From: an uncultured Acidobacteriota bacterium
Lineage (GTDB): Bacteria > Acidobacteriota > Thermoanaerobaculia > Thermoanaerobaculales > Sulfomarinibacteraceae
Assembly: GCA_963753035.1 (NCBI GenBank)
Contig: CAVWAW010000026.1
Coordinates: 2,838-66,837 of the forward strand
Length of the DNA: 64,000 nucleotides
Direction: 5' to 3'
The translations under genes and the position numbers were made by a program. The notes below the pieces were generated by a model. It searched no databases. It was not told where the DNA came from and saw only the letters and a program-made list of their open reading frames with translations. The stretch's first letter is position 1. Every line of letters begins with the position of its first letter. Positions 8,923 through 63,716 of the stretch are shown piece after piece.

Positions 8923-8938
8923 TCGCCACCTCCCCTCG

Positions 8939-10829: not shown

Positions 10830-10835
10830 CAGTTC

Positions 10836-12378: not shown

Positions 12379-12542
12379 GTTTGTTCGACGGCGTTGTCAT
12401 ACGTATTCCCTACCGCAACCGATCACCAGAGGAAAAGGAACAGCCGAAAACAAGCGAGCATGATGAAAAACCAGGCTTGAACTCCAGCCGTTTATTGCCG
12501 AATCAAGTCGTCCGAGCATGATCAATCCGAACTTCACCATAT

Positions 12543-13283: not shown

Positions 13284-13732
13284 ACCTTCCCCCGTAATCT
13301 GCAATTGAGTATCAATTTTAAACAACTTGGAAGCCGCTCTTGCTCAACGGGTGGACACACCCAGTGGGCAACAGACACAGGAACCTGCGCTGGTGGGAAC
13401 ATAGGGCCGATTGGGTTCACCCAACCGTCTCTCATCCCGATATCAAAGGACTCATTCACGGCCATCTTCGCTTCTCCAGACACCCCTGTCGCCCGCCTTT
13501 GGGGCGACTTCCGGATCGCTTAAATTTTTCGGCCCTCCGAGGACCTTGCATTTTAGCACAAAATCCGTTTCCTGTCTGCGCCCACGCTCACGATTCTCGG
13601 TTCAACACCGCGAATTGACGTACACCGGCTCAGAGCGAGCAACTGAACAAGTGTTTGGATCCATGTAACATACTTATTCAACAGTGGTTTGATGATTGTC
13701 AGCCCCGGTGAGTCTCAACCGGTGTGAACACA

Positions 13733-13762
13733 GAAAAACGCCCGGCGTCACCGCCGGGCGTC
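13733..13762 (-). terminator. rho-independent terminator downstream of the secreted protein gene
   Basis: On the minus strand ACGCCCGGCG-GTGA-CGCCGGGCGT (10-bp GC stem) is followed by TTTTT. It lies 28 nt after the stop at 13790-13792. Confidence 0.75.
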
Positions 13763-13789
13763 TTTGTTTGGGGTTGATTCCGTTGTCGA

Positions 13790-19568: not shown

Positions 19569-19682
19569 GATCGGCCTCCTTTTTCGATCCCACAGCCATG
19601 GTGCTGGACCGGCGCGGTGAGAAGAGGACCGAATTGAGGCTGATCGAGGGCGGACCGTGGCGGTGCTTGGGCACCGCCACGG

Positions 19683-19921
19683 AATTATGAATTTTGAATT
19701 ATGAATTTTGAATTTCGGACCCCGTGCTCGAGCGCCAAAGGACTGTCGTACGAGGTCAGACCTGCTCGAATACCTCTGAAGAGCAGGCTGTGAGTCCGCC
19801 CCTAAACTCCATCACATCATTGACATGCATCACGCGTGATCGTTTGCGATGGTGCGATGTCACAATTCATGAATCAATCATAATTCATAATTCATAATTC
19901 ATAATTGAGAATTCATAATTC
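19683..19921. repeat. heptad-armed inverted-repeat element, copy A
   Basis: The left arm TTATGAA/TTTTGAA x4 (19683-19715) and the inverted right arm TTCATAA x4-5 (19864-19921) flank a GC-rich core. The core is ~80% identical over ~100 nt to the core at 42300-42442. Confidence 0.85.
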
Positions 19922-23807: not shown

Positions 23808-25980
23808 ACCGGAAGGACCGATCGGAGAAGCTCTCTCCTGACGAGCAGATCCGGCTTCTCGAGGCCGAGAACGACATCCTCAACGAACGCGCCGAGGATG
23901 TCCTCCTTCTCGGACTGGTCGCCGAGAACCATCACCCCGCTTCGAGATATCGACGCCATTGTCGAGACTCTCTTGGAGAGAGTCGGGATCCTCTACGAGA
24001 TCCCCTATTGCGGGTTCGCTCGAATCGACGGCCCGTCACCGGTTTTCCATCAGGAGTTCGTTCCCCATGTGAGCACAGTGGAGGGATCGTTTTTACGTCT
24101 GGCGCCGAATGCGATGGCGGTTCTCGCCGAGGGCGCGATCGTCTGTTCCGCCGAGGATGCCGCCCACGAGGGCGTCGAACTCGGGCTCCGTGACGTCGAA
24201 CCCAACCAGATCCTGCTCATCCCCTGCGCCTGCAGATCCCAACTCCGCGGTGTTTTCATTTTTGCCCACGACACGTTGGACTCGTCCGTTCTCGTCCGCA
24301 AGCTCATCGTCTTACAACAGGTGACCGGTTTGGCAACCGCGAGGATGGACAATATCCATCTTCTCGACGAACTCACACTCCTCAACGTGGACCTCGAAAC
24401 CCGGGTGAAAGAACCGCACGGCGGAGCTCCATCGGGCCGCGCGGGCTCTCGAAATCGAGATTTCCGAGCGCCGCCGAGCCGAAGAGATCGTCGCTGGCGA
24501 ACGGCACCGCCTGAGAACCGTGGTGGAACACCTTCCAGAAGGCGTGATCGTCCTTGATGCCGAAAACCGCGTGGTCCTGGCAAACCACGCTACTTCGGTC
24601 GCCCAACCGCTCATGGGCCCCATCGAAAACGGTGACGAGCTTGGATCCATCGGGGGCCGCCCATTGGCGGATTTCGAATCTGACGCCAGCGAAGCGCGGT
24701 GGCTGGAGGTCTCTTCCGACTCCGCACCCTCCTCGATCTTCGAGGTGGCGGTCCGCAGGCTTGGAAGCCATCACAAGGGTTCGGTTGTCGTGCTGCGCGA
24801 CATCTCCGAACAGCGGAAAGTTGCGGACCAGCTTCTGAGACAGGAGCGAATCGCCGCCATGGGACATCTCGCCGCCGGGATCGCCCACGATTTCAACAAC
24901 CTGATCCAGGCCATCACGATTCTGGCCGAGAGCCTGCTGCTCGACGAATCCGGCGATCATTCATCCAGAAAACACAAGACCCGCGAGATCCTCGCAGTCA
25001 GCGAACGGGCGGCGACGCTGATTCGGCAGATTCTCGACTACTCGAGACAGACCGCGACCAGCCCGCAGATCATCGATCTTCGTACATTTCTCGTCGAAAC
25101 CCTGACCATGCTTGATCGGCTGATACCCGAGACGGTCCGCATCGAGATCGATGCGGCGCCCGGAGAACACACGATCCGTTTCGACCCCGTCCAGCTCCAA
25201 CAGATCCTGACCAACCTCACCGTCAATTCCAGCCAGGCCATGCCGAACGGCGGCGAGATCAGGGTTCGACTATGGAATCCGAGCGCAACTCGGATCGGAC
25301 CCGGCTCGATTGGCGGATCCGAAGGACGGGACTGGGTCTGTCTGAGCCTCACGGACACCGGTTGCGGGATTCCACCAGAGGCCCGGCCGCATATCTTCGA
25401 GCCGTTCTTCACCACCAAGGAACGCGGTCAGGGCACCGGTCTCGGTCTCGCTCAGACCTACGGCATCATCCGGCAGAACCACGGGCGAATCACCTTCGAG
25501 ACCAACGTCGGTCAGGGGACGACCTTCACCCTGTACCTTCCCGTCGAACACGAAGATGCGGAGATTTCCGAACCGATAACCGAGATCCCCCCAACTCCCC
25601 ACGGAAATCGGGAAACGATTCTGGTGGTCGAGGACGACCCCACGGTTCGGGAGCTCACCGGCGAGCTCGTCGAGGCCCTCGGCTATCGACCCCTCATCGC
25701 CCGCAACGGGATCGAGGCGTTGGAGGTGATGGCGACCACTGAGGAGGAGATCCGCCTGGTGCTCTCCGATGTCGCCATGCCGACCATGGGGGGTGTGGAA
25801 CTCGCGGTCGAGCTGGGGCGGCGCAACCCTTCGGTCCCGGTCGTGCTCATGAGCGGCTATGCACCGGATCCCATGGGCGGCGGGTTTTCGAGCCCCAATC
25901 TCGCCGCATGGCTCCAGAAGCCCTTTTCGGTCGATGCTCTCGCCACCACCCTGGCGGAGATCCTGTCGAAGAGTTCTTAG
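23804..25980 (+). CDS. hybrid sensor histidine kinase (GAF-PAS-HisKA-HATPase_c-REC); 2 frame changes in the 5' third
   Basis: The GTG start overlaps the hydrolase stop (GTGA). The GAF-like region is in ORF 23898-24557. ORF 24520-25980 has the H-box AAGIAHDFNNLIQ, N-box LTNLTVNSSQAM, G-boxes DTGCGI / GTGLGLA and the receiver ILVVEDD...VLSDVAMPTMGG...KPF. Confidence 0.85.
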
Positions 25981-26147
25981 TTCTTAGTTCTTAGTTTTTA
26001 ATTACATCGCATCCGGTCTTCGTCGCTCTGACCGGCACAGGCGACGAACGCACCATTGGGGACCCTGTTTTCATCACCGGTAACCAGCAACCTCTCCAGG
26101 TCGATGTGATGGAACTAAGAACTCAAAACTCAAAACTGAGAACTTTT
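25974..26147. repeat. heptad-armed inverted-repeat element, copy C
   Basis: The left arm TTCTTAG x3 + TTTTTAA (stops at 25978, 25985, 25992, 25999) includes the kinase stop codon. The core begins ACATCGCA and ends GATGTGATGG. The right arm is AACTAAGAACTCAAAACTCAAAACTGAGAAC. Confidence 0.8.
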
Positions 26148-28176: not shown

Positions 28177-28227
28177 CAACACGTCGGCCGTCGACCCCAT
28201 GAGCGGTGTTCGTCACCGAGAGGATGA

Positions 28228-28380
28228 TTGAAACCGCCAAGGCGCAATGGTCGCCAAGGCTCCGCGAAGTTCACTATTGACCCATCGCAGAATGCGATGG
28301 AGGTCTTGAGTCGGAAAGGGTTCGGGTCAAATGATGATCTCTGCGGATTCTTGGCGTGTTTCGCGTCTTGGCGGTTTCAA
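28228..28380. repeat. long imperfect inverted repeat with CCATCGCAG-AA-TGCGATGG hairpin core (copy G)
   Basis: The outer 14 bp TTGAAACCGCCAAG (28228-28241) are perfectly complementary to CTTGGCGGTTTCAA (28367-28380). The CGCCAAG / CTTGGCG sub-repeats occur twice per arm. The core hairpin is at 28282-28300. Confidence 0.8.
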
Positions 28381-28471
28381 TAAATGTTGCTGGCTTCAGG
28401 ACCGTTGACCTGGGTCTGGGGCTTCGCCGCGGCGCGATCTCAGTTACACTAACGTTGGTTCGCTACAAAAC

Positions 28472-39592: not shown

Positions 39593-42264
39593 ATGACGGA
39601 AAGAAAGAAGCTCTACCTCATCGACGGGCCGAACATCGCGTTCCGGGCGTTCTTCGCCATCGGCGGGATGACCAACTCCGCCGGGCTGCCCACCAACGCC
39701 CTCTTCGGCTTCACCAACATGCTGCTCAAGCTCATCCGCGACGAGCGCCCCGACTACCTGGCCATCACCTGGGATCCCAAGGGCGGCTCGTTCCGCGAGC
39801 GTGAGTTCCCCGACTACAAGGGAACCCGACCCGATATGCCGGAAGCCCTCCGCACCCAGATGCCCCACTTCTCACGCGTCGCCGAGGCCTTCGACATGCC
39901 CTTCCTCTGCATCGACGACTTCGAGGCCGACGATGTCATGGGCACCCTCGCCCGCCGTCACGAAGACGAACTCGACGTCGTTCTCGTCACCTCGGACAAG
40001 GACCTCATGCAGCTCGTCACCGACAACGTCACCCTCCTCGACACCATGAAGGACCGCCGGATCTCGTTTCCTGAGGTCGAGGAGAAATTCGGCTGCCCAC
40101 CCGAGCTCGTCCCCGACGCCCTCGGGATCTGGGGCGACTCGTCGGACAACATCCCCGGTGTCAAGGGCATCGGAGAAAAGGGCGCCAAGGCGCTCCTGGC
40201 CAAATGGAAGGGCCTCGACGAGATCTACGCCCACATCGACGAGGTGACACCGCCCGGCGCCAAGGCCAAGCTCGAACGCGACCGTGAGCAGGCCTTCCTC
40301 TCGCGCGACCTCGCCACCATCCGCGACGACGCCCCGGTCGAGGTCGCCCTCGATCAACTCGCCCTGGTCTGGCCGCCCGACGAGGACCGGGCACGCGATC
40401 TCTTCACCGAGTTCGAGTTCCGCGGTCTGCTGCGCGAGTTCGGCGGTGAGATGACCAGCATCGACCGCAGCAAGTACCGGCTCGTCACCGACGACGACGA
40501 GTTGGCGGAGCTGGTGACGTTTCTCGAGGGCGTGCCGCGCTTCGCCCTCGACACCGAGACCACATCGCTGGATTCCATGCGCGCCGAACTCGTCGGGCTC
40601 TCGTTCTGCGCCGATGACGAGGTCGCCTGGTATGTTCCCGTGGCCCACGCGGTGCTCGAGCCCCAGCTCGACTGGGCGACGGTGCGACCCGCCCTCGCTG
40701 CGCGTCCTCACCGATCCCGCCAAGGGCAAGACCGGTCAGAACCTCAAGTACGACCTCGAGGTCCTCGCCAACCACGGGGTCGAGCTCGCCGGAATCGACG
40801 GCGACACGCTGCTCGCCGACTATCTCCTCAACCCCGACCGCCGTTCACACAAGCTCGACGATCTCGCGCTGGTCTATCTCAACCACAAGATGATCTCCTT
40901 CGCCGACGCGGTCGGCAAGGGCGGGACCTTCGACTCAGGTGCCCCTGGACACGGCCCGCGACTACGCCGCCGAGGATGCCCACGTCACCTGGCTGCTCGA
41001 CAACAAGCTCCATCGAGCGGCTCGAGGAAGAGGACCTCGACGAGCTCTACCGCGACCTCGAGCTGCCCCTGATGCCGGTGCTGGCGCGGATGGAGATGAA
41101 CGGCATCGCGGTGGATGTCGCCGCCCTCGCCGAGCTCTCGATCGAGCTCGAGACCGGGATCGCCGAAGCCGAGACAACGGTGCTTCGAGGCCGCCGGACG
41201 CGAGTTCAACATCGGTTCGGTCAAACAGCTCCGGGAGGTTCTCTTCGAGGAGCTGGGGCTGCCGGTGATCAAGACGACCAAGACCGGGGCCTCGACCAAC
41301 GAACAGGTCCTCACCGAGCTGGCCGATCCAGCACCCGCTGCCCCGCGCCATCCTCGACTACCGGTCGCTGGTCAAGCTCAAGAACACCTATGTCGATCCC
41401 CTGCCCGAGCTCGTCCACCCCGAGACCGGCCGGATCCACACCTCGTACTCACAGACGACGGCCGCCACCGGGCGGCTGTCCTCCACCGATCCCAATCTGC
41501 AGAACATCCCGATCCGAACCCCCGAAGGACGGCGAATCCGGCGGGCCTTCGTCGCGCCCCCGGGACGGGTGCTCGTCGGCGCCGACTACTCGCAGGTCGA
41601 GCTGCGGATCCTCGCCCACCTCTGCGGCGGAATCGGCGGTTTCGCCGATGCCTTCGCCGCCGGCGCCGATGTCCACTCGGAGACCGCCGCGGGGCTCTTC
41701 GAGATCCCGCCGGAGGAGATCGACCGGCAGCAGCGGACCATCGCCAAGGCGGTCAACTTCGGCATCGTCTACGGTCAGAGCGCCTTCGGTCTCGTCCCAG
41801 CAGCTGCGGATTCCGCGCAGCGAGGCCAACACGCTACATCAAACGCTTCAAGGAGCGCTTCCCCGAGATCGAGGAGTACCGCGAACGAACCCTCGCCGGA
41901 GCGGCGGAGACCGGCTACGTGGAGACCCTCCTCGGTCGCAAACGACCGGTGCCCGATCTGAGATCGGGCAACTTCAACGCCCGCGCCGCCGCCGAGCGCG
42001 TCGCCATCAACACCCCGGTCCAGGGCTCGGCCGCCGATCTCATCAAGAAGGCCATGCTCACCGTCGATGCCCGACTCCGCGCCGAGTTCCCCGGCCAGCT
42101 GCATGCTGCTCCAGGTCCACGATGAACTGCTGCTCGAGGTCGACGAGGATCAGGCCGATGCCGTCGGCGAGATGGTCCGCGAGGAGATGATCGGCGCCAT
42201 CGAACTCTCGGTCCCGCTCGTCGTCGATCTCGGAGTCGGCAAGAACTGGGATGAGGCGCACTAG
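39593..42264 (+). CDS. polA: DNA polymerase I; reading frame broken 8 times as sequenced
   Basis: 5'-nuclease LYLIDGPNIAFRAFFA, GIWGDSSDNIPGVKGIGEKGA. 3'-5' exo ALDTETTSL, GQNLKYD. Polymerase motifs DYSQVELRILAH (A), RTIAKAVNFGIVYGQSAFGL (B), LQVHDELLLEV (C). The pieces cycle through frames 2-0-1-2-0-1-2-0-1. Confidence 0.9.
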
Positions 42265-42265
42265 G

Positions 42266-42475
42266 ATAATTATGAATTTTGAATGATGAATTTTGAATTG
42301 CGGACCTCGTCCTCGAGCGCCAATGGACTATCGTACGAGGTGTGGACTGCTCGAGCAGCTCTGAAGGGCAGGCTGGAAGCCCATCCCACAATTCATCACA
42401 TCGTTTTTTGAAGAACCCGTGGTCGCTGCGATGGTGCGATGTAATTCAAAATTCATAATTCATAATTCATAATTA
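42266..42475. repeat. heptad-armed inverted-repeat element, copy B
   Basis: Left arm ATAATTATGAATTTTGAATGATGAATTTTGAATT, right arm AATTCAAAATTCATAATTCATAATTCATAATTA. The core is homologous to copy A and ends GCTGCGATGGTGCGATGT. It fills the whole gap between the polA and NUDIX stops. Confidence 0.85.
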
Positions 42476-43093
42476 CTATCTCGGGTCCATCCACCGCCCG
42501 CCTCCTTCTCTTCCTTCGAGCAGGGTGACGAGTTCGTCGACCATGCCGAAGGTGAGGCCCCAGATGACGTGGTCTTGATACCGATAGCACGGCAGATTGA
42601 CCGAGACCTCGCCGTGTTGCCAGGGGATGGTCGAACGGTTGCTGACCGGTCGAGGAGGAAGTCGAGGGGCACCCAGACCACATCGGCGACCTCGTGGTTG
42701 GGATCGAGGGTCGGGCGATCCTCGATGGAGAAGACATAGGGCTCGACGACCAGCGACAGCGGTCTGCCCCGCCCCACCGCTGCCACATCGGACAGCCGGC
42801 CGAGCAGGGTGCCGGCCTTCTCGAGATCGAGGCCGACCTCCTCCCGGGTCTCACGCACCGCCGCTGCCAACGAGTCGGCGTCGCGGTCTCTCCACCCGGC
42901 CCCCGGGAAAGGCCATGTGGCCGGACCACGGGTCCTTGGGATCTTCGGCCCGGTGGATGAAGAGCACCTCGACTCCGTCGCCGGCCTGGCGTACCACCGC
43001 CGCCACCGCCGCGACCTTGAGATCCTCGGTGCGATCGAGGAGACGCGGCTCGTGGGTCCCAGCGACCCGTCGGATATCGTCAATAGTCGGCAT
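42476..43093 (-). CDS. NUDIX hydrolase (CoA pyrophosphatase-like); 2 frame changes
   Basis: Nudix box GGRVE(R)DRDADSLAAAVRETREEVGL. The N-terminus is in ORF 42851-43093. The C-terminal ...VIWGLTFGMVDELVTLLEGR is read in a third frame, with stop TAG at 42476-42478. Confidence 0.75.
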
Positions 43094-46285: not shown

Positions 46286-46967
46286 CCAACGGGGTGCCGG
46301 GCATGGCTTTGTGCCGGAAGAACCTCGCGGCGACGCGTCCCGCCCCGCACAAGGTCCATGCCGGGCTCCCTCGGGGAGCGCGATGCGGTCTGTTCTCCCG
46401 GCTACGAAGCAGGCCGCCGGCGCGCCATCGGCGTGGTCGCAGCCCTCTCAATCAACCCACGCGCGACCACGCCGATGGTGCGACGCTGGGTCGCCGGGAC
46501 GCCAATGCGTCACAGCGGCCCAGAAGGCCGGTGTCGAAGGAAAGTCCCGCCACAGCAACCGGAAATCCCGCCAATCCCAAACTCTCCGCACTCTCTCGGA
46601 AACGCCCAACCAACTTCAACAATACTGACGGACAGGCTGGAAGCCCGCCCCCACAATATCCGCCCAACCTGGTGTGGAACCGACACCGAGGCCGACCAGG
46701 ACACGCGAAAAACCGCGCCCCAACGGGGTGCCGGGCATGGCTTTGTGCCGGAAGAACCTCGCGGCGACGCATCCCGCCCCGCACAAGGTCCATGCCGGGC
46801 TCCCTCGGGGAGCGCGATGCGGTCTGTTCTCCCGGCTACGAAGCAGGCCGCCGGCGCGCCATCGGCGTGGTCGCAGCCCTCTCAATCAACCCACGCGCGA
46901 CCACGCCGATGGTGCGACGCTGGGTCGCCGGGACGCCAATGCGTCACAGCGGCCCAGAAGGCCGGTG
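46286..46967. repeat. 1.6 tandem copies of a 433-bp non-coding unit (248-bp module X at 46286-46533 and 46719-46967; 185-bp module Y between)
   Basis: The two X copies differ at a single position that I could find (GCGTCC vs GCATCC). X contains a perfect 15-bp stem, CATCGGCGTGGTCGC ... GCGACCACGCCGATG. A diverged inverted copy lies at 63219-63467. Confidence 0.9.
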
Positions 46968-47026
46968 CTGAGGGCATGGTCCGCAACAACGGCAGAAACC
47001 TGGACAGGGGCCGTATCCGTTTCCAT

Positions 47027-47479
47027 GGGCGATGGAACCAACCCGCGTCGGTACACCAACATCGCCGGCGGGACGCCGGCGCTACAAACATCGCAGCGCC
47101 CCTTGTAGCGCCCACGTTTCGTGGGCGATAGAACCAACCCGCGTCGGTACACCACCATCGCCGGCGGGACGCCGGCGCTACAAACATCGCAGCGCCCTTT
47201 GTAGCGCCCCCGTCCCGGGGGCGATGGAACCAACCCGCATCGGTACACCACCATCGCCGGCGGGACGCCGGCGCTACAAACATCGCAGCGCCCTTTGTAG
47301 CGACCACGTCTCGTGGGCGATGGAACCAACCCGCGTCGGTACACCACCATCGCCGGCGGGACGCCGGCGCTACAAGCATCGCAGCGCCCTTTGTAGCGCC
47401 CCCGTCCCGGGGGCGATGGAACCAACCCGCGTCGGTACACCACCATCGCCGGCGGGACGCCGGCGCTACAAACATCGCA
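47027..47479. repeat. BIME-like tandem array: 4.7 copies of a ~96-bp unit made of two oppositely oriented REP hairpins
   Basis: Units start at 47027, 47123, 47218, 47315 and 47411. Each has ATCGCCGGCGGGACGCCGGCGCTACAA + ACATCGCAGCGCCC + TTGTAGCGCCC-hairpin-GGGCGATGG. The second hairpin alternates between two variants. Confidence 0.9.
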
Positions 47480-47685
47480 TTCTTGACCCGGACTCCCTCC
47501 AAGTCTGAACAAATATCACTCCTGAACGCTGCGATGGGTCAAAGAATGACTTGGCGGCGCCTTTGCGGCCTCCGCGGCTTTGCGGTTTCATTGTGCTCTC
47601 CAGCAGCCGATCGCGGTCCAACGAATTCCAGTGACGACGCGACCGTACGATGACCCGGTCGATAGGCTTTGCTATCGTCAAGACG

Positions 47686-48905: not shown

Positions 48906-49296
48906 ATGACCCGAGACATCATCGCCACCACCAATGCGCCCGGCGCGGTCGGACCCTACTCCCAGGGCATCCGCACCGAACAGTTCGTCTTCACCGCCGG
49001 GCAGGTGCCCCTCGACCCCGCCACCGGAACCCTGGTCACGGGTTCCATCGAGGACCAGACGCGGCGCGCTCTCGAGAATGTCAAAGCCGTTCTCGAAGCT
49101 GCGGGCACCGGCCTCGACAGGGCCGTCAAGATGACCGTCTTCATGACCGATCTCGGCGACTTCAAACGCATGAACGCGGTCTACGCCGAGTATCTTCCCC
49201 GAAGCTCCACCGGCGCGCTCCGCATTCGAGGTCAGCGCGCTCCCCCTCGGCGCCGACATCGAGATCGAGGCGATCGCGCTGACGCGCAATTCTTAG
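48906..49296 (+). CDS. RidA/YjgF/TdcF family reactive-intermediate deaminase; 1 frame change near 49195
   Basis: APGAVGPYSQGIRTEQFVFTAGQVPLDP, VKMTVFMTDLGDFKRMNAVYAEY, and a C-terminal ...PARSAFEVSALPLGADIEIEAIA read after the shift. The stop TAG is at 49294-49296. Confidence 0.85.
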
Positions 49297-49401
49297 TTTT
49301 CAGTTCTTAGTAGTTCAGTTTTAAGTTTCCATCGCAACAGAAGTGCTAGGCAAGGCGGGCGCTGCGATGTAATTCAAAACTAATAACTTAAAACTAAGAA
49401 C
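49289..49401. repeat. heptad-armed inverted-repeat element, copy D
   Basis: Left arm ATTCTTAG TTTTCAG TTCTTAG TAGTTCAG TTTTAAG. Core CCATCGCAACAGAAGTGCTAGGCAAGGCGGGCGCTGCGATGT. Right arm AATTCAAAACTAATAACTTAAAACTAAGAAC. Both flanking convergent genes stop inside the arms. Confidence 0.8.
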
Positions 49402-50180
49402 TCCCTCCGTCTTCACCGGATTCGACAGCGTCCCCACGCCCTCGATCTCGACGGTCACCTCGTCGCCGGGATTGAGCGGGCCCGACCCCTGCCGGTGTGC
49501 CGGTGAGGATGAGATCGCCGGGCTCCAGGGTCATGACCTGGCTGATGTACGAGATCAAATAGGACGGGTTGAAGACCATCTCGCTGGTCCGGCCCTGTTG
49601 GCGGAGTTCGCCGTTGACCGAGCACCGGATCTCGAGATCGGCGACAGCTGCGCGGTCGATCCCGGCGACGATCCACGGACCGACCGGGCAGAAGGTGTCG
49701 AAGCCCTTGCCACGGGTCCACAGCTTCTCCGCTCGTTGGATATCCCGGGCGGTGACGTCGTTGGCGCAGCTGACACCGAGAACGGCGTCCCATGCCTCAT
49801 CCTCGGCGATACGTCGGCACCGCCGGCCCATGACCACGGCGAGCTCGCCCTCGTGCTCGACCTGAGTCCGATTCTGCCGGCAACTCGATGGCGTCGCCGG
49901 GCCCGATCACCGCGCTCGGCGGCTTGAAGAAGAGCAGCGGCGTCGAGGGCACCTCCGCCGCGTGCTCCGCTGCGTGGGCAACATAGTTCCGGGCGACGCA
50001 GATCACCTTTGACGGGGCAACCGGCGCCAGGAGACTGCAGCTCGATCAAGACGGCCGAGGACAGCCCCGCGTCTCGGTTCTTCGCCGAACGGTCCACCGG
50101 GCAGGTGGACGATCTCGTCGCCTTCGACCATGCCCCAAGCGGGTCGTCCTTCGATCTCGAACGCGGACGATTCTCCTCAC
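49394..50180 (-). CDS. fumarylacetoacetate hydrolase (FAH) family protein; ~3 frame changes, 3' end uncertain
   Basis: GTG 50180 is preceded by GGGAGG. RFEIEGRPAWGMVEGDEIVHL, KVICVARNYVAHAAE...PLLFFKPPSAVIGPGD, HEGELAVVMG, KGFDTFCPVGPWIV, MTLEPGDLILTGTPAGVGP. Confidence 0.8.
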
Positions 50181-53839: not shown

Positions 53840-56073
53840 ATGCTCCACCTCACGAGCCGTTCCGGAGGCCGCACATTGAAACTCACCCATCAACGACGGA
53901 AAATCACCATCGGACCAACCCGATTCGAGGCCTCCCGGACTGCCGACGGGGTCGCCGAACTCTGGGCGGACGACGACGACGCTCTCGCCTGCGCCCTCGG
54001 CGCCGCCCACGCCACCGACCGTCTGGTCCAGATGGTCATGGCCCGGATCGTCGGTCAGGGCCGGATCTCGGAGTGCCTCGCCGATGACGAAACGACCTTC
54101 GCCATCGATCTCTTCATGCGGCAGATGGGTTTTCGCCGCGAGGCGGACCGCGAGGTCGCGGATCTCGATCCGGAGGCGCGCCGTTTCGCCGAGGCCTATG
54201 CAGCCGGGGTCAACCACGTCATCGCAAACCGGCGGCGGCCGGTGGAGTTTGTCCTCGTCGGACACCGGCCCGCCGAGTGGACCCCGGCCGATACGCTCCT
54301 CACCATCAAACTCATGTCCTACCTCGGTCTCGCACAATCCCAGCAGGATGCGGAGAAGCTCATCATCCAGGCGATCCACGGCGGGACACCCATCGAGGCT
54401 CTCACCCGCCTGTTCAGCCCTCACCTCGACGGTCTCGATGACGAAACCGTCGATGCCATCCGCAACCTCGCCCACCTCGAACCCCTGCTACCCCCTGCCC
54501 TCCGGTTCCTACCCGGAGCGCCCAAAGTCGCGGCGAGCAACAACTGGGCGGTCAGCGGCGCCCGATCGGCATCGGGCAACCCCATCCAGTGCAATGACCC
54601 CCATCTCGAAATCAACCGCCTGCCTGCCATCTGGTACGAGGCGGTCATGCACACCGCCGACGACGATCGGGTCGGCGCCACCATGCCCGGAGTCCCGGGG
54701 ATGGTCATGGGCCGAACCCGGAACCTGTCGCTCGGATTCACCTACGGTTTCATGGACATGGCGGACTTTTTTGTCGAGGACTGCCAGAACGGGCGCTGCC
54801 GCCGTGGCGACGAATACCACGCACTCGACAGCCGGGCCGAGACCATTAGACGGAAAGAAGCACCCCGACGCGGAGATCACCATCCGCGAAAACGACCTGG
54901 GTGTTCTCGAGGCCGACCCTCTGCAGAGCGAACTCGCCGACGGGATCTATCTGACCCGGGCATGGTCGGGACACCGGGAGGGAACCGCCAGCTCTCTCGA
55001 CGCCATTCGGCGGGTTGTCCGATCGACCACCGTACCCGACGCGCAGGCCATCCTCCGCAAGGTTTCCATCTCGTGCAACTGGGTGCTCGCCGACCGCCTC
55101 GGCAATATCGGATACCAGCAGTCCGGGCTCCTTCCCGACCGCTGCCACTCCGGAGTCCATCCGGTCCCCGCCTGGCGGGGAGAAAACCACTGGCGGGGCC
55201 TGGTCGATCCGGATCGACTCCACTCGGAACTCAATCCGGCCGACGGCATCGTGGTCACGGCCAACAATGAAATCAACGCCCCCTCAGGCCCCATGGCCGT
55301 CAACCTGCCCATGGGCTCCTACCGCCACGATCGGATTCGAGCCCTGCTCGAAGCGAACAGCGAACACACCCCGGAGACCATGAAGGCCATCCAGCTCGAT
55401 CTCATGTCCCTTCAGGCCGAAGCGCTCATGGAGATCTGGCGCCCGCTGCTCCCGGACAGCCTGGCCGGGCGACTACTCGCGCGTTGGGACCTCCACTACG
55501 ATCTCGACTCACGCGGAGCGACCCTCTTCGAGGAGGCCTATCAACGGATTCTGCTCGAGGTCTGCGGCGAACGGATCTTCGGCCGAGACGTCTGGGACGC
55601 CCTGGTGGAAGAGACCGCCATCGTCGCCGACTACTATCACTTCTTCGACCGGATCCTGTTATCGGAAGATCCCTACTGGTGGGGCGAGGAGGGCCGCGAA
55701 GCGGTGCTGACGAGGATCCTCGGCGACCAGCTCACCCACCTCGATCTCTATCACGTGATGCCCTGGGGACGCCGCCGCCGGACGATGATGACCAATATCT
55801 TCTTCAACGGCAAACTGCCGCGAATGCTTGGCTTTGACCACGGACCCATCTCGATGCCGGGCAGCCGCGCCACCGTGATCCAGGGCGGCCTCTTCACCGC
55901 CCACGGCCGCGACCACCACCTTCGCTCCGTCCTGGCGGTTTATCACCGACATGGGCGCCGACACCGTGGAAACGGTGCTCGCGGGCGGTCCGTCGGGGAG
56001 CCGGTTCTCGAGCTGGTACACCACCGATGTCGAGCGCTGGTTGCTCGGGGAGTACAAGACACTCGAATTATGA
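53840..56073 (+). CDS. penicillin acylase family (Ntn-hydrolase, S45) protein, possibly an acyl-homoserine-lactone/beta-lactam acylase; 2 frame changes
   Basis: Self-processing site ...APKVAASNNWAVSGARSASGNPIQCNDPHL. NIGYQQSGLLP, ...IVVTANNEI. The tail ...SWYTTDVERWLLGEYKTLEL* is read after a shift near 55920. Confidence 0.8.
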
Positions 56074-56160
56074 ATGATGAATGATGAATTTCATCGCAGG
56101 TGCCTTTGGCTGCAGAGTTCTTAGTTTTTAGTTCTTAGTTTTTAATTCCATCGCAGCAGT
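56066..56160. repeat. heptad-repeat element, copy E (two different heptad blocks, each followed by CATCGCAG)
   Basis: AATTATGAA TGATGAA TGATGAA TTT-CATCGCAGG... then TTCTTAG TTTTTAG TTCTTAG TTTTTAA TT-CCATCGCAGCAG. The acylase stop TGA at 56071-56073 is the first rung. Confidence 0.75.
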
Positions 56161-56381
56161 TCTTTCCTCTCGATGACCTCTGGATCACCGCGAGATGACC
56201 CATTCTCGAAGGATCTCGACGCAGGCGAGACGCCCGCGCCACAACAGGACCATCGTCATTGTGGTGCGGGCGGCCCGCCCGCAAGATGACAGTAGTTGAT
56301 CAGCATCCACGAGCCACCCTGCGATGGCCTTTGCGAAGTTCCTAGCGTTCTTTACGCTCTTTGCGGTCAAACTGCGATGGG

Positions 56382-58048: not shown

Positions 58049-59182
58049 ATGGACTACACGAATCCGCAACAGAACGAGGGGCCGGGCATCGACCTTCGTA
58101 GCGGAGAAAGCCACAGTCTGAAGCACGACGATTCGTGGCACGAGAACCTGCTTTCAGGTGTTTCGCGGACCTTTGCTCTGACCATTCCCCAACTCCCGAG
58201 CGGTCTGCGGGAGGCGGTCACCAACGCCTACCTCCTGTGCCGAATCGCCGATACCATCGAGGACGATCCGCTCCTCGATCCCGACACCAAGGATCGATTC
58301 CACAGCGCGTTCCTCGAGGCGGTCACGACCGGTCGCGGAGCAGATGATTTCGCGGCCGAACTCGCGCCGCTTCTGGCGCCGAGCACATTGGCGGCTGAAG
58401 TCGAGCTGATCGAAGAAAGCCCGCGGGTACTGCAGGTCACCCGAGGGATGCATCCAAGGCAACGCATCGCCATCCAACGATGCCTCGACACCATGAGTCA
58501 CGGGATGGCCAGCTTCGCACGGAGCAGAACCCGCGATGGGCTGGCCGACGTGGTCGAGTTCGAACGCTACTGCTATTTCGTAGCAGGGGTCGTCGGGGAG
58601 ATGCTCACCGAGCTCTTCTGCGACTACTCACCCGAGATCGACGCCATTCGCGATCAGCTCACGCCAAGGGCTGTCGGCTTCGGACTCGGGCTCCAGATGA
58701 CCAACATCCTCAAGGACATCTGGGATGACCTCGAGCACGACACCTGCTGGCTCCCACGCGACGTTTTCGAGCGCCACGGATACGATCTCACAACACTGGC
58801 GCCGAACCACAACGGAAACGGCCCGGCGTTCGCAGCATCGATGCACGAACTCATCGACATCGCCCAGGGTCATCTGCGCGAAGCTCTGGCCTACACGCTG
58901 GCGATGCCTCGCAACGAAACCGGAATCCGGCGCTTCCTGATCTGGGCCGTTCTGCTCGCAGTTTCCACCCTTGGAAAGATTTCGGATCATCCGCTGTTTA
59001 CCTCTGGTACGCAGGTCAAGGTTTCTCGACCCCGCGTCGCCGCCATCATCGCCGGCTCGAGCTCGCTCATACGCAGCAATGAAGGACTGAAAAAGCTGTT
59101 CAACACCGCCGCCCGGAGGCTCCCTCTGGATAGCGCCAACCAATTTTCCGCCGTGATCCGAAAGGAATCTGCAAACCCTTGA
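58049..59182 (+). CDS. sqs: squalene synthase (farnesyl-diphosphate farnesyltransferase; squalene/phytoene synthase family)
   Basis: Intact 377 aa. GVSRTFALTIPQLPSGLREAVTNAYLLCRIADTIEDD parallels the SRSF...YLVLRALDTLEDD region of eukaryote-type SQS. The second Asp-rich region is NILKDIWDD. Confidence 0.8.
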   Translation: MDYTNPQQNEGPGIDLRSGESHSLKHDDSWHENLLSGVSRTFALTIPQLPSGLREAVTNAYLLCRIADTIEDDPLLDPDTKDRFHSAFLEAVTTGRGADDFAAELAPLLAPSTLAAEVELIEESPRVLQVTRGMHPRQRIAIQRCLDTMSHGMASFARSRTRDGLADVVEFERYCYFVAGVVGEMLTELFCDYSPEIDAIRDQLTPRAVGFGLGLQMTNILKDIWDDLEHDTCWLPRDVFERHGYDLTTLAPNHNGNGPAFAASMHELIDIAQGHLREALAYTLAMPRNETGIRRFLIWAVLLAVSTLGKISDHPLFTSGTQVKVSRPRVAAIIAGSSSLIRSNEGLKKLFNTAARRLPLDSANQFSAVIRKESANP

Positions 59183-61416
59183 CCAGTTCCGCCTTCTCAT
59201 CGTTCCACAAGCTATCGGTCCAGGAACGCCTCCGGACCGTCCGTGACCGGGGCCTGCTCTCCTCGCAGGAGTGTCGGGCTCTGGGTAACGGCGAAACCCT
59301 CCTCGACATCAACGACGCCGACAATATGATCGAGAACGTCATTGGCGTCATGGGCATCCCCGTCGGTCTCGGGCTCAACTTCCTCATCAACGGCAAGGAC
59401 CACGTCGTGCCGCTCGCGGTGGAGGAGCCCTCCATCGTCGCCGCCCTGAGCTTCGCCGCCAAGACCGCCCGGCTGTCGGGCGGATTTACCGCATCGAGCT
59501 CGGATCCTATCCTCATCGGCCAGATCCAGCTGGTGGATGTCCCCCACCCGGTCAAGGCTCGGCATATCCTCGAAAGCCGCAAGGAGGAAGTCATCAACCT
59601 CGCCAACGGCCTCCACCCGAGGATGGTCGCGCGGGGCGGCGGCGCCGTCGATATCGAGGTGATCCTCCATCCCGCCACCCCCGACACATCCGAGATGCTG
59701 GTGGTCCACCTCCTCGTGGATACCCGAGACGCCATGGGCGCCAACCTGGTGAACACCATGTGCGAAGGGGTCGCCTCGTTTATCGAGAGCCTCACCGGCG
59801 GCAAGGTTTTTCTCCGCATCCTTTCGAATCTCGCTGATCGCTCCCTGGTCCGCGCCTCAGTGAGAATACCGGCCGAGAATCTGAAGACAAAAGGCCACGA
59901 TGGCGAGCAGGTCCGCGACGGCATCATCATCGCGAGTCAGTTTGCAATGGTCGACCCCTACCGCGCGGCAACCCACAACAAGGGCATCATGAACGGGATC
60001 GATGCGGTGGCCCTGGCCACCGGAAACGATTGGCGCGCAGTCGAAGCCGGCGCCCATGCCTTTGCCGCTCGCGGCACCCGTTACACCTCGCTCTCGCGCT
60101 GGACCAAGGGCGACGACGGGGCCCTCGTCGGCGAGATCGAGCTGCCGCTGCGGGTCGGCATCATCGGTGGACCGCTGAGCGCCAACCCTTCGGTCAGTAT
60201 GAATCTCCGGCTTGTCCGGGTCGACTCCTCACGTGAACTCGCAGAAGTGATGGCCGCCGTCGGGCTGGCGCAAAACTTCTCGGCGCTGCGAGCCCTCGTC
60301 ACCGATGGGATCCAACGCGGACACATGACCCTCCACGCCCGGAGCGTCGCGACCGCCGCCGGCGCTACACCCGAGATCTTCGACTCGGTGGTCGACAGGC
60401 TCGTCGCATCGGGCGAGATCAAGATCTGGAAGGCCAAAGAACTCGTCACCGAGGTCAGGGACCAGATGGGCCAAGGCATGGCCCCGGAAGAGCGCGAAGA
60501 GATGTCCGCCGGCAACGGCAAGATCATCCTCTTCGGCGAACACGCCGTGGTCTACGGCAGCCGCGCCATCGCCGCCCCGATCCCCCTCGCGGTACGGGCG
60601 CGGGTGGTCGACGAGAATGATGGTGTCTGGCTGGTGATTCCCCGCTGGGGCGTCGAACAGCGCCTCCGTCTGAATCCGGAGAAACAGATGTCGTTCGAGG
60701 TTCCGGCGGCGTTGATTCTCCGCAAACTCGGCCTCACCGACCGTTCGATGCGGATCGAGGTCTTCTCCGAGATCCCGCGCGCCATGGGTCTCGGCGGTTC
60801 CGCCGCGGTGGCGGTGGCCATCATCCGGGCCATCGACCGCCACTTCGATCTCAAGCTTACCGACGATCAGGTCAACGCCCTCGCCTTTGAGTGTGAGTGC
60901 GTCGCCCACGGCACCCCGTCGGGGATCGACAATACCGTTGCCACCTTTGGCAAACCTCTGGTCTACCGCAAGGCCGACCCGCCGGTCATCCGACCGCTTG
61001 AACTCTCAAAGCCCATCACCTTCGTGGTCGGGATGACCGGGGTCGAAGGGCTCACCGCCAAGATGGTCGCCCGGGTGCGCAACGGCCGCGACCGAAACCC
61101 GGATGTCTACGACACCGTCTTCCGCGGAATCGACGCCGTGACCCTTCAGGCCCTCGAGGCGCTCAAGCAACACGATCTCGAGCGACTCGGCGAGCTCATG
61201 AATATCTGTCAGGGGCTGCTCAACGGGCTCCAGGTATCGAGCTGGGAGCTCGAAGAGCTCATCCAGGTCTCGCGCGAAAACGGCGCGCTGGGGGCCAAGC
61301 TCACCGGCGGCGGCGGCGGCGGATCCATGATCGCCCTCTGCCCGGACAACGCCGACGCGGTCATCGAAGCAATCCAGGGAGCCGGCTATCAGGCCATGGA
61401 GGTCCGCATTGGCTGA
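59179..61416 (+). CDS. bifunctional class II HMG-CoA reductase :: mevalonate kinase fusion protein
   Basis: Intact 745 aa. The N-terminal ~430 aa match class II HMGR (VEEPSIVAA, DAMGANLVNTM, RAATHNKGIMNGIDAVALATGNDWRAVEAGAHA, GIQRGHMTLHAR). The linker is QMGQGMAPEEREEMS. The C-terminal GHMP kinase has GKIILFGEHAVVYG, PRAMGLGGSAAVAVA, KLTGGGGGGSMIAL. Confidence 0.9.
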   Translation: MTSSAFSSFHKLSVQERLRTVRDRGLLSSQECRALGNGETLLDINDADNMIENVIGVMGIPVGLGLNFLINGKDHVVPLAVEEPSIVAALSFAAKTARLSGGFTASSSDPILIGQIQLVDVPHPVKARHILESRKEEVINLANGLHPRMVARGGGAVDIEVILHPATPDTSEMLVVHLLVDTRDAMGANLVNTMCEGVASFIESLTGGKVFLRILSNLADRSLVRASVRIPAENLKTKGHDGEQVRDGIIIASQFAMVDPYRAATHNKGIMNGIDAVALATGNDWRAVEAGAHAFAARGTRYTSLSRWTKGDDGALVGEIELPLRVGIIGGPLSANPSVSMNLRLVRVDSSRELAEVMAAVGLAQNFSALRALVTDGIQRGHMTLHARSVATAAGATPEIFDSVVDRLVASGEIKIWKAKELVTEVRDQMGQGMAPEEREEMSAGNGKIILFGEHAVVYGSRAIAAPIPLAVRARVVDENDGVWLVIPRWGVEQRLRLNPEKQMSFEVPAALILRKLGLTDRSMRIEVFSEIPRAMGLGGSAAVAVAIIRAIDRHFDLKLTDDQVNALAFECECVAHGTPSGIDNTVATFGKPLVYRKADPPVIRPLELSKPITFVVGMTGVEGLTAKMVARVRNGRDRNPDVYDTVFRGIDAVTLQALEALKQHDLERLGELMNICQGLLNGLQVSSWELEELIQVSRENGALGAKLTGGGGGGSMIALCPDNADAVIEAIQGAGYQAMEVRIG

Positions 61417-61987
61417 TGTTGCGAACCACCCAACCAACGAGGTGGTTTCGAGTGAGGAAGAGCCGCTCATCCTTGTTGACGAATCCGATCGCGAGATCGG
61501 CCATCTCAGCAAGGGCGAGTGCCACGATGGCGAAGGCGTACTCCACCGCGCGTTCTCGCTTTTCATTTTCAACTCGGATGGCGAACTTCTGCTCCAGAAG
61601 CGCAGCGCCGAGAAACGCCTCTGGCCGATGTTCTGGTCGAACTCGTGCTGCAGCCACCCTCGCCGTGGCGAGTCCATGAACGTGGCCACCCGGCGCCGAC
61701 TGGAGCAGGAACTCGGAATGGCCGCCGATTTTCACCACCTCTTCACGTTCCAGTACCAGGCGCCGTACCTCGACCTCGGATCTGAGCACGAAATCTGTTG
61801 GGTCTATGTCGGGCTCTGTGATGATCCGCCCCGACCCAACTCAACCGAAATTTCCGCGATCCGATGGATCACGCCGGATGAACTCGACCGAGAGTTCGTC
61901 GATCGCCCCGAGGCCTTCACGCCATGGTTCGCCCAGGAATGGCCGCGGGTCCGCGATGTTTTTCACCGGGTACTGCGTTTGACCTGA
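61409..61987 (+). CDS. idi: isopentenyl-diphosphate delta-isomerase, type 1 (Nudix fold)
   Basis: Intact. HRAFSLFIFNSDGELLLQKRSAEKRLWPMFWSNSCCSHPRRGES...RRRLEQELGM. The TTG start overlaps the upstream stop. Confidence 0.85.
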   Translation: MADVANHPTNEVVSSEEEPLILVDESDREIGHLSKGECHDGEGVLHRAFSLFIFNSDGELLLQKRSAEKRLWPMFWSNSCCSHPRRGESMNVATRRRLEQELGMAADFHHLFTFQYQAPYLDLGSEHEICWVYVGLCDDPPRPNSTEISAIRWITPDELDREFVDRPEAFTPWFAQEWPRVRDVFHRVLRLT

Positions 61988-61995
61988 GGAGACCC

Positions 61996-63099
61996 ATGGG
62001 CATCCCACTGATTCAACAGCTCCGCATCGGCGGATACCTGATCAAACAGAAACTGAAGGGCCGCGATCGGTACCCGTTGGCGATGATGCTCGAGCCGCTT
62101 TTCCAGTGCAACCTCGCCTGCTCGGGCTGCGGCAAGATCGACCATCCCGACGAGATCCTCAAAAAGCGCCTCAGCGTTGAACAGGCCCTCGCCGCGGTTG
62201 ACGAGTGCGGCGCGCCGGTGGTATCGATTCCCGGCGGGGAGCCGCTTCTGCACGATGAGATGCCCGAGATCGTCAAGGGACTTGTGGCACGCAAGAAATT
62301 TGTTTATCTCTGCACCAACGCGCTGCTCCTCGCGCGCAAGATGGACGACTACGAGCCCTCCCCCTACCTCAACTTCTCGGTCCACCTCGATGGCAATCGG
62401 GAGCGCCACGACGCATCGGTCTGCCGCGACGGAGTCTACGATCGGGCGGTCGCCGCCATCAAGCAGGCCCTCGAACGCGGATTCCGGGTGACGATTAACT
62501 GCACCCTCTTCAACGGCGAGGACCCCGACGAGGTGGCGCTGTTCTTCGACGATGTCATGGAGATGGGGATCGAGGCCATCACGATCTCACCGGGCTACAG
62601 CTACAGCCGCGCGCCGCGCCAGGACGTCTTCATGAACCGGCGCGAGAGCAAACAGCTTTTCCGCGATATCTTCAAGCGTGGCGCCGAACGCAAGAAGAAA
62701 TGGGCCTTCAATCAGTCATCGCTTTTTCTCGATTTCCTCGCCGGCAACCAGGGTTACCAGTGCACGCCGTGGTCGAACCCGACCTACAACATCTTCGGCT
62801 GGCAGAAACCGTGTTATCTGCTCGTCGATGAGGGCTATGCCGAGACCTTTGCCGAGCTGATGGAAGAGACCGAGTGGGAGCGCTACGGAACCGGCCGCAA
62901 CCCCAAGTGCGACAACTGCATGGCCCACTGTGGCTTCGAGGGCACCGCGGTCGACGACACCTTCGCCCATCCGCTCAAAGCCCTCAAGGTCGCAATCATG
63001 GGGCCGGACACCGACAAACCGATGGTCGAAGATCCGCCGATCCAGTACCTGGACGATCACCGTGAGTCCAAGAAACTGCCGGTCAAACAGGCGGGGTGA
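61996..63099 (+). CDS. hpnH: adenosyl-hopene transferase HpnH (hopanoid side-chain radical SAM enzyme)
   Basis: Intact. YPLAMMLEPLFQCNLACSGCGKIDHP (CxxxCxxC), VSIPGGEPLLH, FVYLCTNALLL, SSLFLDFLAGNQGYQCTPW, GWQKPCYLL. There is a near-colinear match to HpnH sequences recalled from hopanoid producers. Confidence 0.9.
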   Translation: MGIPLIQQLRIGGYLIKQKLKGRDRYPLAMMLEPLFQCNLACSGCGKIDHPDEILKKRLSVEQALAAVDECGAPVVSIPGGEPLLHDEMPEIVKGLVARKKFVYLCTNALLLARKMDDYEPSPYLNFSVHLDGNRERHDASVCRDGVYDRAVAAIKQALERGFRVTINCTLFNGEDPDEVALFFDDVMEMGIEAITISPGYSYSRAPRQDVFMNRRESKQLFRDIFKRGAERKKKWAFNQSSLFLDFLAGNQGYQCTPWSNPTYNIFGWQKPCYLLVDEGYAETFAELMEETEWERYGTGRNPKCDNCMAHCGFEGTAVDDTFAHPLKALKVAIMGPDTDKPMVEDPPIQYLDDHRESKKLPVKQAG

Positions 63100-63218
63100 C
63101 GTCGATACTGGATACTGTCCCGGACGCTGAATCCTGTCGTTGGTTCCTGCCGCTGTTCCGGTCGCTGGTTTCTGACGCTGTCCCTGCCCCGGTCGCTGTC
63201 CCGGAATAGGTTCCCTCA

Positions 63219-63467
63219 GGCCCGGCCTTCTGGGCCGCTGTGACGCTCGGGCGTCACAGCGGCCCAGCGTCGCACCATCGGCGTGGTCGCGCGTTGGTTG
63301 CTTGGGAGGGCTGCGACCCCGCCGATGATGCGCCGGCGGCCTGCCTCGTTGCCGGGAGAACAGACCGCATCGCGCTCCCCGGGGGAGCCCGGCAGCGCCA
63401 TTGTGCGGGGCGCGGGGCGGAGCCGGGTGGTGGTTCCAGCACAATAGCGTGCCCGGCACCCCGTTGG
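63219..63467. repeat. inverted, diverged third copy of 248-bp module X (see 46286-46967)
   Basis: The reverse complement aligns with module X end to end (roughly 85% by eye) and includes the CATCGGCGTGGTCGC...GCGACC(C)CGCCGATG stem. It is followed (63468-63650) by sequence resembling module Y and a REP at 63541-63572. Confidence 0.8.
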
Positions 63468-63716
63468 GGCGGGGTTTTCCGCTTGTCCTGAATCGGTTGG
63501 GTGGCTCGTTGTTTACCCCGGATTTCGGGGGCTCTGATGGGCCGGCGGGACGCCGGCCCTACAATCATCGCAATCAGGGTTTCAAATCGTTTGGGCGGAC
63601 ATTGTGGGGGCGGGGTTTTCCGCTCGCACGGGAAGGAATCGGGTCGGCAGGGGCAGCGAGCAGCGGCGGTGAGGCTGTTCCGGACGCTGATTCCTGCCCC
63701 TGCCGCGGATGCTGAC

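Follow-up and report, generated by a model that had tools for sequence, protein, structure and literature searches.

A family of palindromic intergenic repeats with heptad-array arms at gene ends in Thermoanaerobaculales-like Acidobacteriota

The closest described counterparts of the repeat treated here are the repetitive extragenic palindromes (REPs), the bacterial interspersed mosaic elements (BIMEs) and the REP doublets forming hairpins (REPINs) with their REP-associated tyrosine transposases (RAYTs), known from Enterobacteria, Pseudomonas, Stenotrophomonas and others (Di Nocera 2013, PMC3733652). These are abundant extragenic palindromes lying mainly downstream of genes, and the termini of GTAG-tagged REPs provide stop codons to the flanking open reading frames (ORFs) (PMC3733652). 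A second described system is that of the TAACTGA heptamer direct repeats of Beggiatoaceae, Cyanobacteria and Bacteroidetes, short intergenic AT-rich arrays of 2–6 units that have stops in all three frames in one orientation and therefore overlap only the very end of an ORF (MacGregor 2015, PMC4679880). The subject of this study is Copy B, a repeat occupying the 210 bp between the polA and NUDIX genes in a 64,000-nt stretch (the window) of contig CAVWAW010000026.1 from an uncultured Acidobacteriota bacterium. Copy B belongs to a family of palindromic intergenic repeats that is abundant in Thermoanaerobaculales-like Acidobacteriota and apparently undescribed. The family resembles REPs and BIMEs in being abundant, extragenic, palindromic and mainly downstream of genes, in lending stop codons to its neighbors, and in its mosaic combinations of modules, its clusters and its long persistence at orthologous sites. 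It is unlike them in its outer parts, which are AT-rich arrays of four 7-bp units and not GC-rich hairpins of 20–40 nt. With the TAACTGA repeats it has in common short intergenic AT-rich heptamer arrays and stops in all frames, and the STRR (short tandemly repeated repetitive) sequences of cyanobacteria are similar heptamer arrays. However, the TAACTGA arrays are single direct repeats, mostly ending a few nucleotides upstream of start codons, whereas the present family is built of other heptamers (TTATGAA, TTTTGAA, TTCTTAG and so on) in another phylum, and its arrays form inverted pairs around a clamp and a loop and are placed at stops. The heptad-array arm appears to be new, while the kind of element, an extragenic palindromic mosaic repeat, is known.

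Copy B (42267–42475) takes up precisely the space between the convergent stops of polA and NUDIX, as a sequence-only reading of the window had claimed, and all the coordinates in that claim were verified. The polA gene ends in TAG at 42262–42264 on the plus strand, 2 nt ahead of the left arm at 42267–42299 (plus strand). That arm consists of AA, the heptads TTATGAA, TTTTGAA, TGATGAA and TTTTGAA, and TT, and is detected as a tandem repeat of period 14 with 2.2 copies. TGA is found in it at 42273, 42280, 42284, 42287 and 42294; without the third of these, the set spans all three frames. The right arm, at 42443–42475, repeats the heptad pattern in inverse: its minus strand reads AA, three TTATGAA, TTTTGAA and TT, giving tca at 42446, 42453, 42460 and 42467. 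A repeat finder scores the two 33-nt arms as 94% complementary, with 143 nt between them. Directly adjoining the right arm is the TAG stop of the NUDIX gene (CoA pyrophosphatase-like; complement of 42476–42478), in frame with a conserved C-terminus ending GGRWMDPR. At two orthologous loci, L001 and L004, the NUDIX stop is instead a TAA built from the first bases of the arm. The identity of polA is given by Pfam 5'-3' exonuclease domains in the window and by DNA_pol_A on the called polA genes of orthologous loci. Compared with four orthologues, both genes appear to be frameshifted in the window. Single-base indels break the two frames at 41790–42110 (polA) and 42580–42880 (NUDIX), an extra A near 42103 being one example, and L001 carries similar frameshifting indels. 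These are probably indel errors of long-read assembly and not signs of pseudogenes, and they are the reason that the true NUDIX stop is missing from the ORF list.

The similarity of Copy B to a paralogue in the window, Copy A (19682–19921, plus strand), had been put at about 80%. The repeat finder gives 83% over 127 nt, and the identity across the whole alignment is also 83%; TGCGATGGTGCGATGT occurs exactly twice in the window against 0.10 expected. The proposal drawn from the pair, that this is a dispersed element and not local low complexity, is correct and if anything understated, for the window holds five heptad-armed elements, about 20 distinct copies of the core were found, and elements consisting of arms only are numerous. 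When up to one mismatch is allowed, (TTNTNAR)x4 has 10 matches in the window and 0.00 in 100 shuffles. Other members were collected by scanning a genome collection with a core pattern, which returned four loci, all in metagenome-assembled genomes of Acidobacteriota, and by scanning metagenomes with a right-junction pattern, which returned 34 loci, one of them a chance match. A NUDIX homologue at 68% identity bears the NCBI name Thermoanaerobaculales bacterium, and the family probably belongs to this lineage. Viral contigs and plasmid and phage records gave no match to the family, and the arm sequences were not found in the literature searched.

The basic module is AA-(TTNTNAR)x4-TT, then ACATCGCACC, a loop, GGTGCGATGT and the inverted arm. 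A survey of the window and 31 non-redundant loci found 90 arms, and 70 of them have exactly four heptads. The commonest heptads are TTATGAA (139), TTTTGAA (84), TTATGAG (30), TTCTTAA (19) and TTCTTAG (15). Their consensus is TTNTNAR, with AA ahead of it, and positions 1, 2, 4, 6 and 7 are conserved across subtypes while 3 and 5 are free to vary. Inside each arm is a GC clamp, TTACATCGCACC / GGTGCGATGTAA. The inner junction is of the CATCGCA type in 64 of the 90 arms, typically TTACATCGCACC, and TT.CGGRCC, with which the core common to Copies A and B (the A/B-type core) begins, is found inside 14. Pairing the arms gives 33 palindromic elements, whose loops fall into two groups, of 32–71 nt and of about 140–220 nt. 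The number of 8-nt clamp units TGCGATGG varies among elements from 1 to 6; this unit occurs 13 times in the window where 3.5 are expected, and Copy B has two units, TGCGATGG TGCGATGT, at the inner junction of its right arm (42427–42442, plus strand). There are also expansions. L014 has an array of 17 heptads (TTGAGAG/TTAAGAG and so on) at 4952–5070, and in L030, at about 340–400, the junction of an arm with a core contains six CATCGCAC units in tandem. Therefore, heptads and clamp units can slip like microsatellites, though most arms keep four units. A different imperfect palindrome lies at 28227–28381 and 47529–47590 of the window, with arms beginning ATTGAAACCGCCAAGGCG and a central CCATCGCAGAATGCGATGG clamp, so the TGCGATG clamp is common to at least three repeat types of this genome.

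The placement of the arms is tied to gene ends. Fifty-seven of the 90 face an incoming ORF (at least 60 codons, with high GC at third codon positions); the stop codon is inside the arm in 19 cases, abuts it in 7, and precedes it by 4–20 nt in 21 and by 21–45 nt in 10. With a stricter second script, stops lie a median of 2 nt from the arm (54 sides); where a side faces a gene start instead, the distance is at least about 80 nt, this being the median to the first possible start codon. The context is convergent in 16 cases, tandem in 19 and divergent in 4, the divergent assignments being doubtful. The stops in all frames follow largely from the T.A core of the heptad. Separate selection for stop codons is not demonstrable, since TTNTNAR gives a stop unless C occupies position 5, and about 75% is expected from the pattern itself.

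The elements are long-lived at their sites, while their contents are not fixed. In five aligned orthologous polA–element–NUDIX loci (the window, L001, L004, L016 and L032), the arms are 88–100% identical, the left 97–100% and the right 88–100%, as compared to 81–97% for the flanking coding DNA. Within the core, identity is 77–96% in the 5' half and just 59–64% in the 3' half of distant pairs; the variable spacer at 42403–42426 has the same 59–64% between distant orthologues. More distant relatives keep the convergent synteny, with a heptad-armed palindrome exactly between the stops, only with other contents. At L039 (NUDIX identity 84%), TGAATTA arms of 8 and 3 units enclose an unrelated core of about 150 nt; at L040 (73%), arms of TGAGTTC/TTAGTTT type enclose a 62-nt loop; and at L041 (68%), four TTCTCAG heptads lie opposite six TTATGAG with a 49-nt loop. 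L042 (60%) is without the element, but its locus is rearranged and contains another gene. No empty polA/NUDIX site was found among the relatives, and those still more distant do not have the synteny.

Exchange, duplication and inversion of contents can be seen at other sites. At one orthologous gene end (GGGATTAC|GTTTGAA), the element is a simple hairpin in L024, and the versions in L030 and L033 are nested and contain the core. L022 has a tandem pair of cores, as against a single core in its orthologue L002. Between Copy A and L003 the flanks are collinear (87% over 1213 nt and 82% over 839 nt), and the core aligns on the opposite strand; judged from these alignments, the difference is an inversion of the core between the arms. 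Core copies within a genome are 75–85% identical, not near-identical, and they group mostly by orthologous locus, but in some cases two copies on one contig are closer to each other than to any other copy (L013a/c at 92% and L011a/b at 76%). With respect to incoming transcription the core has no fixed orientation, being sense in L003, L002, L013c and L030 and antisense in Copy A, L037a and L011a.

The A/B-type loop is cargo, made of a conserved 70-nt domain and one GTAG/GTGG-tagged REP of the type that is associated with RAYTs in this lineage. The core copies were gathered with nhmmer and aligned (alignment A3, 20 copies). In Copy B the 5' domain, GCGGACCTCGT.CTCGAGCGCCAA.GGACTATCGTACGAGG..CTGCTCGAGC.GCTCTGAA, spans 42300–42365 on the plus strand. 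GACT..CGT.C.A.G is invariant in 20 of 20 copies, and the 16-nt block GGACTATCGTACGAGG is nearly so. A small ORF was considered, but the ATG of Copy B is not conserved in the other copies and A3 contains no conserved ORF. The REP unit follows at 42366–42391, as a hairpin GGGCAGGCT-GGA-AGCCCATCCC and then CCACAA; on the minus strand, this is TTGTGG (42386–42391) plus a hairpin, that is, a REP with the GTAG/GTGG tag. CTACAA or CCACAA, reading TTGTAG or TTGTGG on the other strand, follows the hairpin in 18 of the 20 copies. The hairpin, with consensus GGGCAGGCG-GGA-CGCCCGCCC, is the best-supported structure of the core. Its columns (68–77/105–113 of A3) are 92% paired, three pairs have double changes, and the closing pair is UA in 12 copies, GC in 6 and AU in 2. 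On the GTAG strand it is fully paired, every mismatch becoming G-U. The REP unit also includes a CATCACA motif at 42394–42400 (plus strand), whose pairing partner is the TGCGATG clamp close to the right arm (pairs 30–35/86–91, G-U in 15 copies and G-C in 3). On the GTAG strand this forms a second small helix, between arm-side CATCGCA and REP-side TGTGATG. RNAalifold recovers the REP hairpin and the clamp on either strand of the core and nothing else.

The same REP type occurs elsewhere in the window with the layout TGCGATG-N-TTGTAG-hairpin, including dimers near 17.4, 56.2 and 63.6 kb. At 47026–47479, a BIME-like cluster contains 4.7 copies of a 96-nt unit, each a tail-to-tail pair of GTAG REPs (hairpin-CTACAA-A-CATCGCAGCG-CCC-TTTGTAG-hairpin). 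Beside the cluster, a 269-nt segment is duplicated at 97% (46286–46554 and 46720–46988), and about 16 kb off there is an inverted copy, 85–86% complementary, at 63211–63490. A RAYT is encoded in L013 (14–650, minus strand), matching NF047646 at 88.5 bits (cutoff 80) and Pfam Y1_Tnp, and homologues are present in L046 (154–786) and L047 (349–981). All three genes have REP doublets on both sides, TTGTGG-GCGCGCGTCTCGCGCGC ... GCGGGCGGGACGCCCGC-ACCACAA, then runs of (G)CGCCCGCACCACAA-like units, and these REPs have the same hairpin type as the A/B core. RAYT genes of this type are nearly all on very short contigs, as expected because assemblies break at repeats. None was found among the 30 ORFs of the window that were scanned. 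The element as a whole is neither a REP nor a REPIN: palindrome and tag come together in the core hairpin only, Copy B has one REP where a REPIN has a doublet, and most members of the family have no REP at all. The RAYT genes are flanked by REP doublets and not by heptad arms, which leaves unsupported the idea that the arms are RAYT-associated terminal inverted repeats of the TIRYT type (PMC3733652).

What the arms do is a separate question, and the reading that we favor, at roughly even confidence, is that of a REP/BIME-like palindromic mosaic repeat that, at the 3' ends of genes, forms a symmetric hairpin and closes every reading frame. The element would be passively transcribed, becoming the 3' end of the transcript of any flanking gene that runs into it, and the GC clamp and 28-nt A/U arms would then fold into a long hairpin, alike on both strands. 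This hairpin may mark and protect the mRNA 3' end, or it may hinder read-through between neighboring genes. Since the heptads close all reading frames, we propose that a gene can end inside an arm harmlessly. The many near-identical arms may recombine with one another to swap and invert cargo, and RAYT-type transposition of single-stranded DNA may move the REP cargo. Loss of non-functional spacer by deletion would bring the arms up against stops, not starts.

Folding and symmetry are consistent with such a hairpin. With its arms paired, Copy B has folding z-scores of −6.1 (plus strand) and −5.4 (minus strand), and 28 of the 33 elements reach −4 or lower on both strands, the exceptions including L039 and both elements of L041. 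Partner arms agree at 0.673 in the variable positions of the heptad and non-partners at 0.547, a difference reached in 1 of 5000 permutations. The arrangement also recalls bidirectional intrinsic terminators, which likewise put a symmetric A/T-rich tract, GC stem and A/T-rich tract directly past both stops. But those terminators have loops of 3–8 nt, whereas these elements have loops of 8–50 nt or cores of about 150 nt, and no U-run.

A number of points weigh against the hairpin reading. Its function at the 3' end is inferred only from position and symmetry. Partner arms are often just 67–81% identical, some only 67–71%, and at L041, where TTCTCAG is opposite TTATGAG, the fold is no better than that of shuffles. 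A terminator scan of 42150–42600 returned no terminator-like site, and the hairpin is not followed by a U-tract; what comes after the clamp, AAUUCAAAAUUCAUAAUU, is A/U-rich and not a U-run, unlike an intrinsic terminator. A canonical terminator does occur elsewhere in the window, at 18516–18488, and it is the sole convincing example among terminator-like sites that, over 40 kb, are at chance level. The constancy of four heptads, the conserved TT.T.AR and the solitary or same-direction arms (as in element E5, below) fit recognition by a protein better than they fit a plain stem. Nothing ties the arms to the RAYT, given that the RAYT flanks lack them, and mobility of the whole element is unproven because neither a target-site duplication nor an empty orthologous site was found.

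Promoter-like sequences were found in the arms and not in the core. The sigma-70-like matches are outward-facing TTCAAA-17-CATAAT, a by-product of four successive TTCAWAA heptads. Every arm of this composition gives such a match, at 9 of 12, as at 42445–42473 (+), 42297–42269 (−), 19712–19684 (−) and 19891–19919 (+). If active, they would drive antisense transcription into the flanking 3' ends and, at Copy A, in one case sense transcription toward the DUF3014 gene.

The main rival is that the heptads are recognized by a protein. Here the arrays would be operator-like, each 7-bp unit taking up one protomer of a dedicated protein and each arm four. This protein would act on either duplex DNA or single-stranded RNA, and the element would serve as a protein-dependent 3' boundary (a roadblock terminator, an insulator or a nucleoid anchor), its hairpin potential being secondary. 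We consider this possible, though on balance rather unlikely. The fixed number of units in 70 of the 90 arms speaks for it, as does the pattern of conserved and free positions within the heptad. So does the finding that arms are more conserved than the coding DNA beside them, and that poorly complementary partners are still retained at the L041 polA site. Same-direction and solitary arms also exist. There is precedent in the omega repressor of inc18 plasmids, where contiguous arrays of 7-bp heptads are bound cooperatively by ribbon-helix-helix proteins. CspB is another protein that binds heptamer repeats (MacGregor 2015, PMC4679880). Against it, no candidate protein came to light, arms resemble their partners significantly more than they resemble non-partners, the folds of most elements are far better than those of shuffles on both strands, and the GC clamp CATCGCACC/GGTGCGATG is itself palindromic. 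A bolder version would make the four-heptad arrays and clamp a lineage-wide, protein-dependent bidirectional terminator or insulator set on the stop codons of Thermoanaerobaculales-like Acidobacteriota, kept at its sites (down to 68% NUDIX identity) while cargo and arm subtype co-evolve; we offer this as a speculation with a low chance of being right.

Similarly improbable in our judgment is a classical cut-and-paste transposable element of the miniature inverted-repeat type (MITE), where the arms would be terminal inverted repeats for a transposase encoded elsewhere and the loops arbitrary cargo. Placement at stop codons would then reflect a preference for AT-rich targets in a GC-rich genome together with tolerated insertion. 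The bacterial MITEs (Correia, ERIC/IRU, RUP, Nezha and others) do have terminal inverted repeats, a length of 100–300 bp, many non-coding copies, frequent co-transcription with their neighbors, and long hairpins. The present elements have conserved inverted arms around a variable interior, 90–330 bp without coding capacity, and several coexisting subfamilies, and different elements occupy the same site in different lineages. The closeness of the within-contig core pairs of L013 and L011 also fits. However, their arms are a fixed number of tandem heptads, and no parent insertion sequence was found. There is no target-site duplication in the flanks of Copies A and B, element E2 or the polA-site orthologues, and the base before the conserved AA varies. 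A TA duplication was considered and rejected, as the TA beside Copy B belongs to the palindrome and is missing at Copy A. No autonomous partner with the same arms was found in about 300 kb, nor any empty orthologous site, and the scan of 30 window ORFs revealed no transposase and no invertase or recombinase. The 75–85% identity of copies within a genome and their persistence at orthologous positions across deep divergence are likewise not what this explanation predicts.

The sequence-only reading had also suggested a structured RNA. As a discrete RNA gene, whether small RNA or cis-regulatory RNA, with the arms merely insulating it, this is not supported, and we regard it as very improbable. 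The near-invariant 16-nt block would suit it, and the 5' half of the core is conserved among orthologues about as well as coding DNA. Of the two stems put forward, ACCTCGT/ACGAGGT has some merit, with four pairs showing double changes in the 20 copies, but it is paired in just 76% of cells and many of the breaks are uncompensated. The other, CCTGCTC/GAGCAGG, shows no covariation and competes with the better-supported REP hairpin. Rfam 15 has no match at gathering score anywhere in the window, none for Copy B even at E<=10, and only chance-level matches around Copy A, far below gathering scores; the window has no tRNA or tmRNA (transfer-messenger RNA) either. RNAalifold finds only the REP hairpin and clamp on both strands, the core has no associated promoter or terminator, its orientation varies relative to host transcription and is inverted at one orthologous locus, and relatives have unrelated loops at this site, all of which weakens the explanation.

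An inverton, a segment of some 150 bp between inverted repeats that a site-specific recombinase flips in order to change a neighbor's expression, is suggested by the 28–36 bp inverted repeats around a 147-nt segment, by the two core orientations at orthologous loci with collinear flanks, and by the position of Copy A upstream of a gene, but we regard it, too, as very improbable, because the five polA-site orthologues have one orientation, most elements are between convergent stops where a promoter switch makes no sense, the core has no internal promoter and the tested window ORFs no adjacent recombinase, the L003 locus has the same orientation in three assemblies, and opposite orientations are seen only between species, where a single inversion over such distance is expected from ordinary recombination between inverted repeats.

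If the preferred reading of a REP/BIME-like hairpin repeat holds, little-studied uncultured Acidobacteriota of sediment and soil would have extragenic repeats built on a different principle from the GC-rich REPs. Their distinctive marks are modules of fixed length in heptads, a stop in any frame, deep persistence, and an interior that is swapped, duplicated or inverted. The family would offer a natural setting in which to study the role of extragenic palindromes at 3' ends, and it bears on local rearrangement driven by dispersed inverted repeats. The common TGCGATG junction suggests that REP/RAYT elements might use other repeats as landing pads. In practice, such arms break short-read assemblies, mimic low complexity or RNA genes, and cause the ends of annotated ORFs to be set wrongly.

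The other heptad-armed elements of the window are flanked, like Copy B, by ordinary housekeeping genes whose Pfam domains reach the gene ends. Copy A lies 10 nt past the stop of a minus-strand LEA_2 gene and upstream of the DUF3014 gene. A GC hairpin, GGCGGTGC-TTGG-GCACCGCC (19659–19678), is located immediately outside its left arm, between the element and the point where the DUF3014 gene begins, and is kept at the orthologous locus L003 (6640–6656). Element E2 (25971–26142, plus strand) has TTCTTAG-type arms and an unrelated 113-nt loop. Its first heptad provides the TAG stop of a hybrid histidine kinase, the receiver domain of which (Pfam) ends 9 residues short of that stop. Element E4 (49290–49403, plus strand) combines TTCTTAG-type arms with a short loop; two convergent genes, for RidA and FAA hydrolase, each end within its arms. 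Element E5 (56065–56157, plus strand) consists of two arm modules in the same direction, first of TGAATGA type and then of TTCTTAG type, with CATCGCA after each. A penicillin-amidase gene stops within the first module, and REP dimers then follow at 56220–56290.

Two features of the window lie apart from the repeats. Positions 1–14000 have a GC content of 0.55–0.58, as against 0.60–0.68 elsewhere in the window, and contain no heptad arms; the genes there are of exopolysaccharide type (Poly_export/SLBB, a polysaccharide deacetylase, a CoA_binding_3 sugar transferase and an AAA_22 ATPase). At 59134–61413 (plus strand), a single ORF of 760 aa fuses an HMG-CoA reductase domain to the N and C domains of a GHMP kinase (mevalonate-kinase-like), and it is followed by a radical-SAM/DUF3463 gene at 61882–63096.

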